Origin: an uncultured Candidatus Saccharibacteria bacterium | Lineage (GTDB): Bacteria; Patescibacteriota; Minisyncoccia; Phycocordibacterales; Zambryskibacteraceae | Reading direction: 5' to 3' | Length of the DNA stretch: 64,000 nt | Assembly: GCA_964355645.1 (NCBI GenBank) | Contig: CAYHDI010000002.1 | Location: forward strand, 92,522 to 156,521 | Shown here: piece after piece, positions 23,177 to 29,233 of the stretch | Layout: every line of letters starts with the position of its first letter | Numbering within the stretch: the stretch's first letter is position 1 | The notes under the pieces: model-generated | Seen by the model: the letters and a program-made list of their open reading frames with translations, nothing else | Database searches by the model: none | What the model was told of the DNA's origin: nothing | Position numbers and translations under genes: made by a program

Positions 23177-23554
23177 CTACTTCTCAATCGAACCAATTGA
23201 TGATGACGAGAATATTTCAAATGTTCTGAAAGGGATTTTACCCCTTTTGAAAAGCTCAATCTTCACAGTTACGCCACCAGATACATAAGAGAAGATACTC
23301 AGTGTTATTTGCACTCTGTGCGCATCACTGAATGCTGTAGTCCAGTTGTCGAAACCATTACAAATACGATTCCTCAACAGCAAAACGTGCTTGGGGATAT
23401 TCGAATCTAGATCCTCAGATTCTCCCCAAAAGGAGGCGAGGTCGGTTCCGATACGAAGTGCAGTTCTAACGCAAGGTTCGTTGCGAAACACAGGATCTGT
23501 TTCGATCTTTCGACGCAAATCAGGCATAACGTATATACCAATTTTCTTGAACAT
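23177..23554 (-). CDS. Hypothetical protein in a moderately GC-enriched patch between scpA and aspS
   Basis: 125-aa ORF with no recognisable domain. The span is overlapped by spurious antisense ORFs. Confidence 0.35.
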   Translation of the reverse strand: MFKKIGIYVMPDLRRKIETDPVFRNEPCVRTALRIGTDLASFWGESEDLDSNIPKHVLLLRNRICNGFDNWTTAFSDAHRVQITLSIFSYVSGGVTVKIELFKRGKIPFRTFEIFSSSSIGSIEK

Positions 23555-23720: not shown

Positions 23721-25157
23721 TTATTTCAATTTCAAACCCAATTCCTTGAGTTGTTTTTCTGAGGCTTCGGATGGAGAATCCATCATCAAATCCTTGCCCT
23801 CGCCGTTTTTAGGGAAAGCCATCACTTCTCGAATATTTGGCTCATTTTCAAGCATCATCACGAGACGATCAAGCCCCCACGCGATACCTCCGTGTGGTGG
23901 TGTACCAGAACGAAAAGCTTCAAGCATGTAGAAAAGATTTTTCTCTACTTCTTCTTTGGAAACTCCCATTATTTCGTATACTGCAAGCAGGGCTTCGGGT
24001 TTGTGATTCCTGATACTCCCTCCACCAATCTCATTGCCATTCAAAATAATATCGTATTGATTGGTGAGAATATTCGGGATGTTTCTTTTGTTCAATAAAT
24101 CTTCTGCGAATTCGGGTTGAGCTCCAGAAAACGGATTATGAGTGAAGGTCCATTCACCTGTGGCTGTCGGGTTATCAGATTTATCTGTTTTCTCGAAAAA
24201 TGGAAAGTCTACGACCCAGCAGAAAGAGAGAAGATCTTTGTCATCCTTATTCTTTCTCAAATCTGGTCTATCCGTCCCGTATTTTTTCACAGCCTCCTTA
24301 TAAGAAATTCTGGGGAAAGGAATTTCCTGAATCTTTTTGTCTGGATAAAGTTCTGTGACCAAAGCGATGAGAAGCTTCTCATTGAGCTCCATCACATCTT
24401 CTCTCTCCACAAAACTCATTTCAAGGTCGAGTTGAGTGAATTCCGGTTGTCTGTCACCACGAAGGTCTTCATCGCGCATACATTTGGCCATTTGGAAATA
24501 TCTTTCCATACCCGAAGCCATGAAAAGTTGTTTGTATTGCTGAGGAGCTTGAGGCAAAGCATAGAATTTCCCTTTCTCTAATCTTGAAGGCACGAGGAAA
24601 TCTCTCGCTCCTTCAGCGGTGGATTTAGAAAGAATCGGTGTCTCAATTTCAATAAAATTTTCTTGATCAAGAAAATCTCTAATAAACTTTACCACCTTGT
24701 GTCGGTGTCTCAGATTTTTCTGCATTCTTGGTCGGCGAAGATCAAGGTAGCGATATTTCAATCTATTTTCCTCACCAATTTCCTTTCCATCACTAGATAC
24801 ATCGAAAGCTGGAGTTTCGGCTTTATTAAGAATTTCAATTTCTGTCACCTCAAGCTCTAAATCCCCATTCAAGACGTCTTTGTTGATGTTTTTCTCGGGT
24901 CTTTTGTTCACTATTCCAGTAATTTTCAAAACCCACTCTGGACGCATCTTCCCGGCAATTTCCATTGCCGAGGATCCTCGACTTTCAGTCGGGACTTCTG
25001 CTTTCGCAGGCAAAACTACGCATTGAACCTTGCCGGTCATATCGCGCATGTCGAAGAAAACCATCTTGCCTTGATCACGACGAATATCTACCCATCCTGA
25101 AATGGAAACTTCTTTCCCTACATGTTTTTCTAGATCTTTAATATAAGTTCTATTCAT
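23721..25157 (-). CDS. aspS: Aspartate--tRNA ligase (archaeal/eukaryal-type short form, 478 aa)
   Basis: Class II motifs FRDEDLRGDRQPEFTQLDLEMSF, GGGSIR and GLDRLVMML. Confidence 0.85.
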   Translation of the reverse strand: MNRTYIKDLEKHVGKEVSISGWVDIRRDQGKMVFFDMRDMTGKVQCVVLPAKAEVPTESRGSSAMEIAGKMRPEWVLKITGIVNKRPEKNINKDVLNGDLELEVTEIEILNKAETPAFDVSSDGKEIGEENRLKYRYLDLRRPRMQKNLRHRHKVVKFIRDFLDQENFIEIETPILSKSTAEGARDFLVPSRLEKGKFYALPQAPQQYKQLFMASGMERYFQMAKCMRDEDLRGDRQPEFTQLDLEMSFVEREDVMELNEKLLIALVTELYPDKKIQEIPFPRISYKEAVKKYGTDRPDLRKNKDDKDLLSFCWVVDFPFFEKTDKSDNPTATGEWTFTHNPFSGAQPEFAEDLLNKRNIPNILTNQYDIILNGNEIGGGSIRNHKPEALLAVYEIMGVSKEEVEKNLFYMLEAFRSGTPPHGGIAWGLDRLVMMLENEPNIREVMAFPKNGEGKDLMMDSPSEASEKQLKELGLKLK

Positions 25158-26109
25158 TGTGATGAATTAATCCAACTTTCTTCCTAACTTCTATCATTTT
25201 CTCATGAACTATTTTTCTCATTTTCTCTCCTCCTTCTCGAATAATTTTATCCACTTCATCACCCTTCTTCTCCCACTCGGCTCGTCTATCTCTCATTGGT
25301 CCTATCACGGCCTTAATATCTTTGATTAATTCTTCCTTTAAATCCTTGTATTTGCCTTTTTTTTCTGCATACAACTTCTCAAGTTCCACCTCGGGTCTAA
25401 AGAGTTTGTGAAGCTCGAATACGTTTTTTGGAATATCTGTGCCCGAATCTGTGACTATGCTCATCACTGCTTTCTCTATTTCTTCATTTGTGGCAAAGAG
25501 TGGAATGGTGTTGTTGTAGCTCTTACTCATCTTTTGTCCATCTGTCCCGATAATTGTACCCACACTTTCAATAATCAAAGGTTCAGGTCGAACGAAAGTT
25601 TCTCCATACGCATTATTAAATTTATCTGCAACGTCACCGGCGATTTCTACATGTTGTTTTTGATCAGAACCCACGGGAACAAGTTCAGCATCGTGCACCA
25701 GGATATCCGCCGACATGAGAATCGGATAATTGAAGGTTCCAACATTCACATCTTTCTTCTTGGTTTCAGCATCCTTGAACGCATGTGCGCGAGAGAGGTA
25801 AGGAACAGTAACCAAGCATTCAAATATCCAAGCGAGTTCAGCCACATGCGGGATATCTGATTGAAGAAAAATGGTCACTTTCTCTGGGTCAAGTCCGGCT
25901 CCTAGATAATCCAAAACTAGATTCTTAGTATATTCAGAAAGCTTGTTTGGGTCCTGCGTGGTCGTAAGCGCATGCATGTTGGCCATGAAAAACCTGCATT
26001 CATACTTATCCTGTAAATCAATCCATTGTTTGAGTGCCCCAAAATAGTTTCCAATATGAAGCGGACCGGATGGCTGCATACCTGAAACCAGGATTTTCTT
26101 CTTTGACAT
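25150..26109 (-). CDS. trpS: Tryptophan--tRNA ligase
   Basis: HIGH-like region GPLHIGNYFG and KMSKS. Confidence 0.9.
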   Translation of the reverse strand: MSKKKILVSGMQPSGPLHIGNYFGALKQWIDLQDKYECRFFMANMHALTTTQDPNKLSEYTKNLVLDYLGAGLDPEKVTIFLQSDIPHVAELAWIFECLVTVPYLSRAHAFKDAETKKKDVNVGTFNYPILMSADILVHDAELVPVGSDQKQHVEIAGDVADKFNNAYGETFVRPEPLIIESVGTIIGTDGQKMSKSYNNTIPLFATNEEIEKAVMSIVTDSGTDIPKNVFELHKLFRPEVELEKLYAEKKGKYKDLKEELIKDIKAVIGPMRDRRAEWEKKGDEVDKIIREGGEKMRKIVHEKMIEVRKKVGLIHHNE

Positions 26110-26146: not shown

Positions 26147-26533
26147 CTAGAATAGGAGAATGGCAAGAGGCGCTATGAGCCAAATGGTGAAGATTTGTTC
26201 AGGAGCAAAAACTGGATTCAAATAGGCTGGGAAGTGATAGATGGAAGCAATAGGCACAATGTGATACAAAATAGATATAATTAAACCAATGATTGAGACA
26301 ACAAGCAGAATAATTTTTAAATATCTTTTGAATCCCCTATCGGAGTAAACAGAAATGTGTTTGTTTACCACATAAAATATTGGCAAGAAAAAGATAATGA
26401 GAATCATAATGTGATTCCAGAAAAGTTGATCAGAACCTTTGAGAATCGTCAAAGTCTTCACAAAAAACGCTTGAGTGTACAAAAGTATCGCGAGATAAAG
26501 AGAAATAAGTGCAGAGACTAATTTATTTTCCAT
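26147..26533 (-). CDS. Integral membrane protein (about 4 TM), hypothetical
   Basis: Hydrophobicity pattern. Immediately downstream of the C39-like peptidase. Confidence 0.45.
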   Translation of the reverse strand: MENKLVSALISLYLAILLYTQAFFVKTLTILKGSDQLFWNHIMILIIFFLPIFYVVNKHISVYSDRGFKRYLKIILLVVSIIGLIISILYHIVPIASIYHFPAYLNPVFAPEQIFTIWLIAPLAILLF

Positions 26534-26550
26534 GAATTAATTATATCCTA

Positions 26551-27066
26551 TTATTTTATAGTAATTAATAATGGGCAAAACAACAAGTGGTCTCTTAATT
26601 GAATGACAGCTTTTTGTAATACGGAACTTTCCACAATCCTACTTTCCCCGAACCACGGATCGAATATCTTATATGAATTATCATCATTAACAGATTCAAC
26701 GATTATAAAGTGTGGGGCGTGAGGGTAAATTCCTTCTCCAGCATCAATATATAATATGTAAGGAGTGGGTGTTGAATTCATTAAGTTAGAATCTATCGTT
26801 CGGGAGATAAGTTTAATATTTTTATTATCAAAATTAGTCTTCAAATCCTTAAGAAAGTATTCATTATCAACATACACATCAAAGTCCTCGCGGTACTTTT
26901 CAGAAAAAATATTCAGGACTTTTAATGCATAACTTATCTTTGTTTTGATGTCCTCAACAGCAAGTTCTAATTCCTCCCCTTCTGTTGCTTCACCTTTTGC
27001 AAGTAATAATAAACAAACAGGTAAACAGCCTTCCAAGGTTTCTTGTTTGTATGGCTTGAAATTCAT
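26551..27066 (-). CDS. C39-like (papain-fold) cysteine peptidase domain protein
   Basis: N-terminal QETLEGCLPVC (Gln...Cys) and C-terminal HAPHFIIV...DPW (His/Asp) match the Peptidase_C39_2 pattern. Confidence 0.5.
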   Translation of the reverse strand: MNFKPYKQETLEGCLPVCLLLLAKGEATEGEELELAVEDIKTKISYALKVLNIFSEKYREDFDVYVDNEYFLKDLKTNFDNKNIKLISRTIDSNLMNSTPTPYILYIDAGEGIYPHAPHFIIVESVNDDNSYKIFDPWFGESRIVESSVLQKAVIQLRDHLLFCPLLITIK

Positions 27067-27084
27067 ATCAATAATTTTAGCATT

Positions 27085-27168
27085 TTATACCCCCTCTTTT
27101 TTAAGTTCCTCAACCAACCTCTTAGCTTCCTTAGAGAGTTTGTCGGATATGTAGATAATTTTCCTCAT
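27085..27168 (-). CDS. 27-codon sORF re-encoding the DnaJ C-terminal tail, translationally coupled (ATGA overlap) to the upstream DUF4325 gene
   Basis: Product MRKIIYISDKLSKEAKRLVEELKKEGV matches the DnaJ C-terminus ...[22 protein letters not shown]. Its start codon overlaps the stop of the 27165-27479 gene. Confidence 0.3.
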   Translation of the reverse strand: MRKIIYISDKLSKEAKRLVEELKKEGV

Positions 27169-27479
27169 AATCCCATCTGCTTAACGGCTCGATTTACTAT
27201 ATCAGCCACATAGTCTTTTCGTTCCCTCGCTATTACGGGAAGTGCTATGCGCACAGAGGCATTATTCGTAGGCAGTAACTCAACTTTTCCATAATTAAAG
27301 TCGGCAAGGCGTGTAATGAATTCATCAAGCCAAGAAGGATTAACTGTGAGGACATCATCAAAGTCGATCTGAACAGGCAGATCTTTATTTAGCTGAGGAC
27401 GAATTGCATTAAAAGCTTCCTGTCCATTTGGTCGTCCTACTAGCACGTTACCGAATTTTTTAAGATGAATTGTTTGCAT
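27165..27479 (-). CDS. DUF4325-like (STAS-fold, anti-sigma-antagonist-like) protein
   Basis: IHLKKFGNVLVGRPNGQEAF...VQIDFDDVLTVNPSWLDEFITRL fits the DUF4325 pattern (IkikdfG..lgtR..G......lDFdgV..issSF.DEf). Confidence 0.5.
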   Translation of the reverse strand: MQTIHLKKFGNVLVGRPNGQEAFNAIRPQLNKDLPVQIDFDDVLTVNPSWLDEFITRLADFNYGKVELLPTNNASVRIALPVIARERKDYVADIVNRAVKQMGL

Positions 27480-27486
27480 AATGATT

Positions 27487-28215
27487 TTAGAATTTTATCA
27501 CACAATATGTACCTCGCACATTTTGCTTCGCCATACCAATGGTGAGATAGCCCGGTTTCTCAACTGGAACAGTAACCACCCCAATACCAGATCGGTAAAA
27601 AAGTCCCACTTCACGTGATTCAAGAACTCTAAGCACAACCTTCAATCCTTGGCCCCTCTTTTCTGGATTTCTTCCAGAAATAATTTCTGTAAAAGCAACT
27701 TTCAAAGCCTCTTGATCATCAACAATGGACGGCCTTACTTGTCTGAGGGTTGCTTTTACGCCTCGACCACGATCAGCTATCACTATAACCCTCTTTTTAA
27801 GATCATAGGCGTAGAATGTGCCCGAAATATCTGGCCAATTGCCTACATTATGAGCAAAAGAATTGTCACCAATTTCGCTGGCAATCAACGTGATGAGTGA
27901 ATCCAATGCTTCTGAAAATCGACTGTCCCCCTGGAGTTCCATGCCCATTTTTGTTACTCGACTGGTAAAACGATCAGGCAACTCACAGTAATAATCAATA
28001 GGAAGTTCAGGTGGTATCGCGCTTGTTGCCCATACCATCCCTAACGCCTCTATGTCTACAGCAAATTTTTTAAGATCCACTAAGTGGTAATATCGCTGAT
28101 TTCCAGCACTTCTTTCTGAGAGAAGTTTCCCGGATTTTTCCCAATTGCGAAGAGTCTGGGAAGTGACTCCAAGAATTTTAGCAGCTTCACTTATACGTAC
28201 TTTACTATCAATCAT
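27487..28215 (-). CDS. MerR-type HTH fused to a GHKL (RsbW/SpoIIAB-like) ATPase/kinase domain
   Basis: MerR HTH ISEAAKILGVTSQTLRNWEKSGKL. GHKL N-box EIGDNSFAH, G1 DRGRG and G2 GQGL. Confidence 0.6.
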   Translation of the reverse strand: MIDSKVRISEAAKILGVTSQTLRNWEKSGKLLSERSAGNQRYYHLVDLKKFAVDIEALGMVWATSAIPPELPIDYYCELPDRFTSRVTKMGMELQGDSRFSEALDSLITLIASEIGDNSFAHNVGNWPDISGTFYAYDLKKRVIVIADRGRGVKATLRQVRPSIVDDQEALKVAFTEIISGRNPEKRGQGLKVVLRVLESREVGLFYRSGIGVVTVPVEKPGYLTIGMAKQNVRGTYCVIKF

Positions 28216-28224
28216 AAAGGTATT

Positions 28225-28292
28225 TTATAAGTTTATACCCTAAACTTATAAAAGTCAAGTTAACTTTATAAGTTAATACCCTAAACCTATAA
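28225..28292. promoter_or_regulatory. Two copies of a 27-bp palindromic operator-like site (TTATAAGTT-N9-AACTTATAA) upstream of the HTH-GHKL gene
   Basis: 28225-28251 is a perfect 9-bp inverted repeat with a 9-bp spacer. 28266-28292 is a near-identical second copy. Both lie between the dnaJ stop and the HTH gene ATG. Confidence 0.4.
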
Positions 28293-28303
28293 TGAACATT
28301 GTA

Positions 28304-29233
28304 CTATATCCCCTCTTTTTTCAATTCTTCAATCAATTTCTTTGCCTCCTTGGATAATTTCTCGGGAATATTGACTGTGATGCGGACATACAAATCACCC
28401 CGTCTGTTCCCGCCTTGAGGTACACCCTTGCCTTTCACCCTAAGAATTGTTCCTGAATTTGTGCCAGCGGGAATCTTGAGTTCTATTGTCCCATCCAATA
28501 TTTGAATATTCTTTGTGGCTCCCAGAAGTGCATCCGAAAGTTTAATATTCAAATCCATGATTAAGTTGTAGCCTTCTTTTCTAATATTCGGGTGTCTTTT
28601 CACATGGACTTTGATATACAAATCTCCGGGTTGACCATTCTCAATCATTTCTCCCATTCCATCCATGCGAATCATCTGGCCACTCTCTATGCCCGCAGGA
28701 ATTGCAATGTTCACTTCTTTCTGTTTAACCAGTCGGCTGTTAATGTTGACCTTGCGTGTCACTCCGAAAACCGATTCGTAGAAAGTTATTTCTATATCCA
28801 CTTGAACATCACGGCCTCGACGCATTCTTCGCCCTCCGAACATACTGCTCAAAATATCATTCAAATCAATATTTTCGAATCCTTGAGCATTACCACTGAA
28901 TCCTGAGAAATCAAATCCTCCGAAACTCTGTCCAGCATTGAACCCGCCGAAGCCCGAGGCTCCAGCATTAAAGTTCCCGCTCCCTACGGCATCATATTGA
29001 GCGCGTTTGTTTTTGTCTCCGAGAACAGAATAAGCTTCACTGGCTTCTTTGAATCTTGCTTCATTTCCACCCTTTTTGTCCGGATGATGTTCGTGAGCCA
29101 ATTTGCGAAAAGCTTTCTTTATTTCGTCTTCTGTCGCGGTTTTAGAAACGCCGAGAATTTTATAGTAATCTTTAGACATTAGTTTCAGGAGCTGGACCCG
29201 TTCCCTCTGCTCCCTTATCTTTGAATTCAGCAT
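28304..29233 (-). CDS. dnaJ: DnaJ-class chaperone lacking the zinc finger (CbpA/type II-like). Likely start [11 protein letters not shown], near 29179
   Basis: J domain with HPD (HHPDKK), a G/F-rich region and C-terminal beta-domains. No CxxCxGxG repeats. Confidence 0.8.

Follow-up and report, generated by a model that had tools for sequence, protein, structure and literature searches.

A candidate mobile two-gene phospho-switch, comprising a DNA-binding GHKL kinase and a STAS-like partner, beside dnaJ in a Patescibacteriota genome

Results

A conserved gene pair between dnaJ and trpS

We analyzed a stretch of 64,000 nucleotides (nt) from an uncultured Candidatus Saccharibacteria bacterium of the Patescibacteriota (contig CAYHDI010000002.1, positions 92,522 to 156,521), hereafter the window, and focused on five minus-strand open reading frames (ORFs) located between dnaJ and trpS. 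A previous reading made from the DNA letters alone (the sequence-only reading) had described them as a signalling or defence-like cassette, composed of a GHKL kinase with its own DNA-binding helix-turn-helix (HTH) domain, a DUF4325 STAS-like partner, a coupled small ORF (sORF), a C39-like peptidase and a protein with four transmembrane helices (4-TM). All five ORFs are present, co-directional and tightly packed (Table 1), and a search for non-coding RNA in the region gave none. Only the first two of the five, which we call K and S, form a real unit.

Scanning one genome per species, we obtained about 190 copies of the K-S unit, and 80 loci other than that of the window were retrieved and analyzed. 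S is found directly after K in 77 of the 80, which goes against the refuting case named in the sequence-only reading, that the two would not be co-localized in other genomes; two of the remaining three have no ORF-level match to K, and the contig of the third stops about 50 nt past the K stop codon. The median gap between the two genes is 12 nt, and the identity of K to the window protein is correlated with that of S across loci (r = 0.93). Both of the HTH-less K relatives that we looked up also have a clear DUF4325 gene downstream of the kinase gene (PF14213, E = 5e-10 and 5e-9), and thus kinase and DUF4325 protein constitute a conserved unit. Genes neighbouring the pair fall into almost no shared clusters, with no conserved third gene, and no homologue of dnaJ, dnaK, grpE, trpS, the C39-like gene or the 4-TM gene was found within 6 kb in the 80 loci. 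The downstream neighbour is convergent in 23 of the 70 loci that could be scored.

According to the record titles, about 67 of the 80 loci come from the Candidate Phyla Radiation (CPR)/Patescibacteria, and the pair also spans hundreds of metagenomic clusters. The K family comprises 622 database clusters, and the matches listed share 61-94% identity, almost every one with a length of about 242 amino acids (aa). Eight loci (L008, L026, L056, L040, L044, L055, L069 and L074) are found in metagenome-assembled genomes (MAGs) labelled as non-CPR, namely Gammaproteobacteria, Ignavibacteriae, Omnitrophica, Elusimicrobiaceae, Roseivirgaceae and Bdellovibrionales, one of them on a 177-kb contig; they reflect either binning or labelling error or true spread beyond the CPR. 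The Harrisonbacteria assembly JAHFLF01 holds two diverged copies on different contigs (L048 and L053). Searches of IMG/VR and the GenBank phages returned no full-length relative, just HTH matches to excisionases and IS607 transposases.

K combines a MerR-type HTH with the boxes of a GHKL kinase

The N-terminal HTH of K matches the MerR family of Pfam (PF00376, residues 7-43, E = 1.5e-12) and resembles the HTHs of IS607 transposase and of excisionases; its best match in NCBIfam is HspR (E = 2e-7, 30.8 bits against a cut-off of 105). The HTH and the first helix of the kinase domain are no more than about 45 residues apart, a stretch that consists of one helix and coil. K differs from MerR/BldC/excisionase-type proteins in having neither the MerR coiled-coil dimerization helix nor an effector domain.

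The N, G1 and G2 boxes pointed out in the sequence-only reading are invariant in an alignment of 35 K sequences. They read E114-x3-N118-x3-H122 (N), D148-R-G-x-G152 (G1) and G188-x-G190-L-K (G2), with E114, N118, H122, D148, G150, G152, G188, G190 and L191 unchanged in all members, and the invariant residues are also retained in the HTH-less relatives. K scored as a Bergerat ATP-binding fold, and in the fold search its C-terminal domain matched GHKL kinases, not resolvases, with the anti-sigma factor kinases SpoIIAB and RsbW as the best structural matches. Comparison of K with the sequences in the PDB gave no match, and no hidden Markov model (HMM) link to solved GHKL structures was found. Taken together, K looks like a fusion of a MerR/excisionase-type HTH with a GHKL serine kinase of the RsbW/SpoIIAB type.

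Clustering of the kinase core at 50% gave 255 representatives, including forms of about 190 aa without any HTH, and other forms carry an ArsR- or MarR-type HTH. In P0246, P0321 and P0284, a winged HTH (wHTH) of the ArsR or MarR type replaces the MerR type on the kinase core. In one case a cytidylyltransferase-like domain precedes the core, in a fusion that may be a product of gene calling. On this sequence evidence, the kinase core has gained different DNA-binding domains by fusion more than once.

S is a STAS-like protein with an invariant serine

S matched DUF4325 (PF14213) marginally, with 23.8 bits against a cut-off of 23 (E = 3.7e-5), and the S-type partners of the HTH-less K relatives reached 36-39 bits. 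It consists of a STAS-like domain plus two extra short C-terminal helices, and the Pfam scan revealed no HTH family match. The motif P48-S49-W50-x-D52-E53-F54 is invariant. Ser49 (codon 27333-27335) is located at the N-terminus of helix 2 (residues 48-61) and, as judged by position and not by superposition, is equivalent to SpoIIAA S58, CapS S54 and VapS S48. The structural matches of S and K correspond to one half each of the SpoIIAB-SpoIIAA and RsbW-RsbV complexes. A Foldseek search with S gave no match, no HMM link to solved STAS structures was found, and no Pfam STAS match reached threshold.

Domains, motifs and fold matches together support the pair as resembling a partner-switching kinase and antagonist, the kinase having a DNA-binding domain of its own, as had been proposed.

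Predicted palindromic operators precede K

Upstream of K, a promoter scan placed the -35 and -10 hexamers 17 bp apart, whereas spacers of 19-20 bp are typical of MerR promoters. Two palindromes, O1 and O2, accompany the hexamers (Table 1). The motif TATARGTTT-N8-AACYTATA occurs in the 64-kb window at O1 and O2 only, so that no further operator sites were found there as a sign of a regulon, and the region upstream of grpE-dnaK is without the motif. The same layout recurs upstream of K elsewhere, with the consensus TTGACTTTTATAGGTTT…TAAACTTATAA and a further upstream palindrome; palindromes were detected in all 39 scorable loci, at 7.7 per locus compared with 1.1 in shuffled sequence. The HTH of K is the obvious candidate to bind these putative operators, since S lacks a DNA-binding domain, and we infer that K represses its own operon through them.

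K is located immediately downstream of dnaJ and has HspR as the best NCBIfam match of its HTH, and HspR controls the dnaK operon in actinobacteria. On these two points K could be read as an HspR-like, MerR-family repressor at the end of grpE-dnaK-dnaJ that controls that operon. This has almost no probability, as the HspR score is far below its cut-off, none of the 80 other K-S loci adjoins dnaK, dnaJ or grpE, and the window has no copy of the operator motif upstream of grpE-dnaK. Likewise, K does not follow dnaJ in any of 80 dnaJ loci from relatives. The distribution refutes this reading.

Sharp borders, duplicated gene ends and an empty site

The copy of the pair in a Zambryskibacteria MAG (L001) shares 83% nt identity with the window over 1123 nt, from 28290 to 27169. 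The homology stops at the first operator on one side and at the S stop codon on the other, the flanks being unrelated, and similar sharp limits were found in L002, L006 and L011.

In the window, imperfect direct repeats derived from the dnaJ 3' end lie on both sides of the K-S unit; the two copies are 78% identical in DNA and are in the same reading frame. Copy 2 is located inside the sORF, the final 20 or so residues of which (DKLSKEAKRLVEELKKEGV, followed by the stop) duplicate the DnaJ C-terminus and end in LKKEGV. The sORF is still an intact ORF; it is a displaced remnant of the dnaJ 3' end and not the coupled component of the pair that it had been taken for. Significant flanking direct repeats, 19-117 bp long and 73-100% identical, were found in 14 of 74 K-S loci, and each of them is the 3' or 5' end of an adjacent gene, present as one intact copy and one fragment. 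Their positions are 2040-2153 and 3566-3679 in L036, 50-166 and 1354-1473 in L065, and 596-657 and 2116-2177 in L056; further loci with flanking repeats include L051, L060, L061, L062, L038, L044 and L064. We know of no analogue for such repeats other than the long target duplications of the IS1634 type.

A metagenomic contig of the same aquifer series (Hainich; L084), about 94% identical in DNA to the window, provides an empty site. It lacks the block that holds K-S, the dnaJ remnant and the C39-like gene (Table 1), consistent with the earlier description of the genes as wedged in, and its dnaJ stop codon is separated by 5 nt from the ATG of the 4-TM gene. In the blastn alignment, L084:2298 (window 28302) is the end of dnaJ and L084:2304 (window 26533) the start of the 4-TM gene. 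The last 50 nt of dnaJ (window 28300-28349) show 12 mismatches to L084, compared with 0-3 per 50 nt over the preceding 500 nt or so, and this jump looks like a recombination junction. Because the repeat copies are only 78% identical, homologous recombination with a more distant donor, which already carried an old insertion, probably brought in the whole block. Simple in-situ target duplication, like Campbell-type integration in the lineage of the window, fits poorly with repeats at 78% and an empty-site relative at 94%.

At the dnaJ/4-TM junction of L086 (5893-7308) there are three different genes of 146, 184 and 131 aa, which by eye look inorganic-pyrophosphatase-like, HD-domain-like and HAD-like. 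In several other relatives trpS directly follows dnaJ. This junction looks like a hot spot of variable cargo.

These borders also bear on whether K-S is itself a transposition or recombination machine, made up of an IS607/excisionase-like HTH and an ATPase, which would account for the long duplications at its flanks. The likeness of the HTH to those of IS607 transposase and excisionases, the sharp borders, the long duplications and the lack of any other mobility gene inside the unit would suit such a machine. We consider it very unlikely, since K has no recombinase or nuclease fold, its C-terminal domain matching GHKL kinases, and the conserved upstream DNA is promoter and operator. In addition, inspection of the two ends in the window (with no systematic scan) revealed no obvious terminal inverted repeat. 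IS1634-type insertion sequences produce long target duplications of variable length (cited in PMC2266710). The K-S unit resembles them in its long, variable-length direct repeats of target DNA, and differs in having no transposase, in the imperfection of the repeats and in the lack of an obvious terminal inverted repeat by inspection.

The C39-like and 4-TM genes are not part of the unit

The C39-like protein scored 20.5 bits with the Pfam Peptidase_C39 profile, just below the cut-off of 22. Q8, C14, H116, H119 and D136, as a candidate catalytic Q/C/H/D set, are invariant in 8 homologues and fit a papain-fold peptidase. The family is very small: its members, 73-82% identical, make up 8 clusters among 5.8 billion proteins. 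Homologues in L166, L167 and L169 are located in three different contexts, none with K-S or dnaJ and none with an ABC-transporter fusion or neighbour; a 99-aa protein follows the C39-like gene in L166 and L169. No dnaJ remnant was found upstream of the other C39-like genes, and hence the remnant was rejected as a part of a C39 cassette. The C39-like gene, which has a low G+C (0.32), is an independent, stand-alone accessory gene that shares the variable spot and is not a part of K-S. The 4-TM protein is 99% identical in L084, directly after dnaJ, and 53% identical in L086, preceding trpS. The 4-TM gene is native to the trpS neighbourhood and lies outside the K-S unit.

The sequence-only reading had treated all five genes as one cassette and had suggested the peptidase and the 4-TM protein as the output of the pair, so that a kinase/STAS switch would drive peptide processing or export. 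The ORFs are indeed co-directional and tightly packed, no terminator is predicted between them, and L084, the empty-site relative, lacks the C39-like gene as well as K-S. A C39-like or 4-TM homologue is nevertheless nearby in none of the 80 other K-S loci, the C39-like homologues occur in three other contexts without K-S, the 4-TM gene occurs without K-S or a C39-like gene in L084 and L086, and a dnaJ pseudo-fragment lies between S and the C39-like gene. Only K and S travel together. The neighbourhoods of the 80 K-S loci and of the C39-like homologues refute the five-gene cassette as a conserved system, and such an output has very little probability. On the reading that we prefer, K-S does not belong to the dnaK operon and would exert no control over the C39-like and 4-TM genes.

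Coordinates of the features are collected in Table 1. Two further observations concern genes outside the block. The longest ORF of dnaJ begins 18 codons before the canonical start (window 29177-29233) and overlaps dnaK by 62 nt; DnaJ of relatives begins at an internal Met (29179), which is the probable true start. An unassigned ORF of 125 aa (window 23177-23554) is located between aspS and scpA, and the same ORF is called as a 116-aa gene without Pfam match in the matching contigs L081 and L082.

Table 1 Features of the dnaJ-trpS interval (window coordinates)
Feature	Position	Strand	Size	Remarks
dnaJ	28304-29233			Upstream flank of the minus-strand block
Direct repeat, copy 1	28305-28371	minus		Functional dnaJ 3' end
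K-S promoter/operator region	28226-28291	minus
O1 palindrome	28267-28291		25 bp
-35 element	28253-28258			TTGACT
O2 palindrome	28226-28250		25 bp	Contains -10 TAAACT (28230-28235)
K	27487-28215	minus	242 aa	HTH-GHKL kinase (predicted), between dnaJ and trpS
K, HTH	28060-28203		aa 5-52	MerR/excisionase-type
K, conserved linker			aa 55-99	Includes W62 and Y76-C-E-x-x-D81-R-F-T-x-R86
K, kinase domain	27490-27918		aa ~100-242	RsbW/SpoIIAB-type GHKL (predicted)
S	27165-27479	minus	104 aa	DUF4325 STAS-like
Transferable unit	27169-28290	minus	~1.12 kb	O1 through S stop codon
sORF	27085-27168	minus	27 aa	MRKIIYISDKLSKEAKRLVEELKKEGV, then stop; ATG overlaps S stop (ATGA)
Direct repeat, copy 2	27086-27150	minus		Inside sORF; displaced dnaJ 3' fragment
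C39-like peptidase gene	26551-27066	minus	171 aa	G+C 0.32
4-TM membrane protein gene	26147-26533	minus	128 aa
Block missing from L084	26534-28303		1768 bp	Holds K-S, dnaJ remnant and C39-like gene
trpS	25150-26109			Other flank of the five-gene block

Relation to described kinase-STAS systems

When the knowledge behind the sequence-only reading was formed, no system with this architecture had been described, and it did not recognize the pair as a described one; the closely analogous CapK-CapS and VapKSC have been described since (PMC13373217; Chambers et al., EMBO J 2026). CapK has the order HTH-STAS-GHKL and CapS is a STAS-wHTH repressor. Single-stranded DNA activates CapK, which phosphorylates CapS at Ser54, an absolutely conserved residue on the second STAS helix, and this phosphorylation de-represses the downstream immune operon; CapKS was found upstream of immune operons in 348 of 443 cases, and the role of the CapK HTH was reported as unknown (PMC13373217). 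In VapKSC, a proven toxin-antitoxin (TA)/anti-phage system, the STAS protein VapS (Ser48) is the antitoxin of the VapC nuclease (PMC13373217). An older survey found a VapC-like PIN group coupled to DUF4325 genes (PMC5499597), and VapS is therefore probably a DUF4325 protein too.

Compared by described architecture and not by sequence, K-S shares with CapK-CapS the two-gene unit in which the kinase gene is immediately followed by the STAS gene, an anti-sigma-type GHKL kinase with an N-terminal HTH, and, in the partner, a conserved Ser on STAS helix 2. A promoter autoregulated through palindromic sites, with transcription as the output, would be a further likeness, at the level of inference for K-S. 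In contrast to CapK, K has no internal STAS domain and carries the conserved linker of about 45 aa instead. CapS represses through a C-terminal wHTH, whereas S has no DNA-binding domain, so that K would have to be the one to bind DNA. K-S also has no conserved downstream operon, its downstream neighbours being convergent in 23 of 70 loci, and its loci are mostly from CPR/Patescibacteria. Searches by sequence or fold with K and S did not retrieve the CapK/CapS entries of the PDB (9Z71-9Z73 and 9Z7O).

VapKSC likewise pairs a GHKL kinase with a small STAS protein that has a short C-terminal helical extension and a conserved Ser at nearly the same position (S48 in VapS, S49 in S). It differs in its VapC/PIN toxin, which K-S does not have, and in a STAS domain on VapK where K has its HTH; a PIN family is not among the 25 most frequent families neighbouring K-S. 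With SpoIIAB-SpoIIAA and RsbW-RsbV the pair shares the N, G1 and G2 boxes and a Ser at the start of STAS helix 2, and is set apart by the HTH on the kinase and by the lack of a linked sigma factor or PP2C phosphatase. Since it has no STAS domain within the kinase, no wHTH on S and no linked immune operon, K-S falls outside the CapKS family. It is best described as an architectural variant of the kinase-STAS switch, neither a CapKS member nor categorically new.

Discussion

Our preferred reading, to which we give a probability of about 55%, is that 27165-28291 is a self-contained, horizontally mobile two-gene phospho-switch in which K is an autorepressor kinase and S its substrate. K would dimerize through its kinase domain and bind the two palindromic operators at its own promoter, repressing itself. 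S would dock on the kinase domain of K as SpoIIAA docks on SpoIIAB, and, judging from SpoIIAB-SpoIIAA and CapK-CapS, K would phosphorylate it on the invariant Ser49. Once phosphorylated, S would be released, and the phospho-state of S would toggle K between a free and an S-bound form and hence control its binding to DNA. Most likely, the pair would act as an accessory module, of a regulatory or addiction type, that senses stress or infection and spreads from one CPR genome to another; such a role fits because of the TA-like format, the patchy distribution, the presence/absence polymorphism and the occasional AbiEii, Fic or restriction-modification (R-M) neighbours.

Several points weigh against the phospho-switch. 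No Pfam HATPase_c model matched K at E < 1, and just two distant K relatives matched HATPase_c_2 (E = 0.002 and 0.02), below its cut-off of 27.4 bits; of the domains named in the sequence-only reading, profiles clearly recovered the MerR HTH, marginally DUF4325, and not the kinase. The unit encodes no phosphatase, and it encodes no mobility enzyme. The proposed accessory role is weakened by two further points: no effector domain is present, and defence genes are about as common 3.5-6 kb from the pair as right beside it.

K-S could instead be a TA or abortive-infection system, in which K is a growth-arresting effector that phosphorylates an essential host or phage protein and S is its pseudo-substrate antitoxin, comparable to HipA-type kinase toxins or to VapKSC minus VapC; the operon, regulating itself, would then work as an addiction or defence module. 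Like type II TA systems, the pair is a two-gene, apparently autoregulated operon with a mobile, patchy distribution. The small, tightly spaced genes, the autorepressible palindromic promoter, the variable contexts and the presence or absence of the unit between near-identical genomes all suit this proposal, as do the two diverged copies in one MAG (L048 and L053) and the relationship to VapKSC, itself a proven TA/anti-phage system. Genes for AbiEii, Fic/SoFic, type IIG R-M and serine recombinases adjoin some K-S loci. However, defence genes are about as frequent at a distance of 3.5-6 kb (about 6 of 88) as immediately adjacent to K-S (about 13 of 136), no toxin-type domain is present, the HTH is on the putative toxin and not on the antitoxin, and searches of viral contigs and phage genomes (IMG/VR and GenBank phages) turned up no copy. 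To our knowledge, GHKL serine kinases are not known as toxins. PADLOC models run on the window proteins matched the HTH only (mad1 and MTase_II) and NCBIfam gave nothing specific, so the defence assignment of the sequence-only reading was not borne out. We regard a TA system as unlikely, yet worth keeping in view.

The best structural matches, which are anti-sigma factor kinases and their antagonists, would also suit a classical partner switch in which K sequesters a sigma factor, S acts as the anti-anti-sigma factor and the HTH serves for autoregulation only. Neither a sigma-factor gene nor a PP2C phosphatase is linked to K-S in the 80 loci, and the repeated independent fusions of MerR-, ArsR- and MarR-type HTHs to the kinase core argue that DNA binding by the kinase is the output. 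Such a classical switch is improbable.

A more speculative proposal, which we consider doubtful, is that K-S is an undescribed autonomous selfish or defensive element, a kinase-based switch for addiction or abortive infection that stands alone, in which K is sensor, repressor and effector at once and S a phospho-regulated antidote, and which duplicates the ends of its target genes. If true, a selfish K-S would spread in ultra-small CPR genomes, duplicating tens to more than 100 bp and leaving the tightly packed neighbouring genes intact.

CPR/Patescibacteria have tiny genomes with very few recognized regulators or defence systems. Under the preferred phospho-switch reading, K-S would be a conserved, horizontally spreading switch present in about 190 species representatives, and would extend to these genomes the principle of CapK/CapS and VapKSC, that of an anti-sigma-type kinase and a STAS substrate working outside sigma-factor control. 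The extension would be a minimal form, with the DNA-binding domain on the kinase itself, and may bear on why CapK carries an HTH. The pair of a filled and an empty site, together with the long target duplications, would offer a route to study how a cassette without a recombinase inserts into gene-dense genomes while sparing the neighbouring genes.

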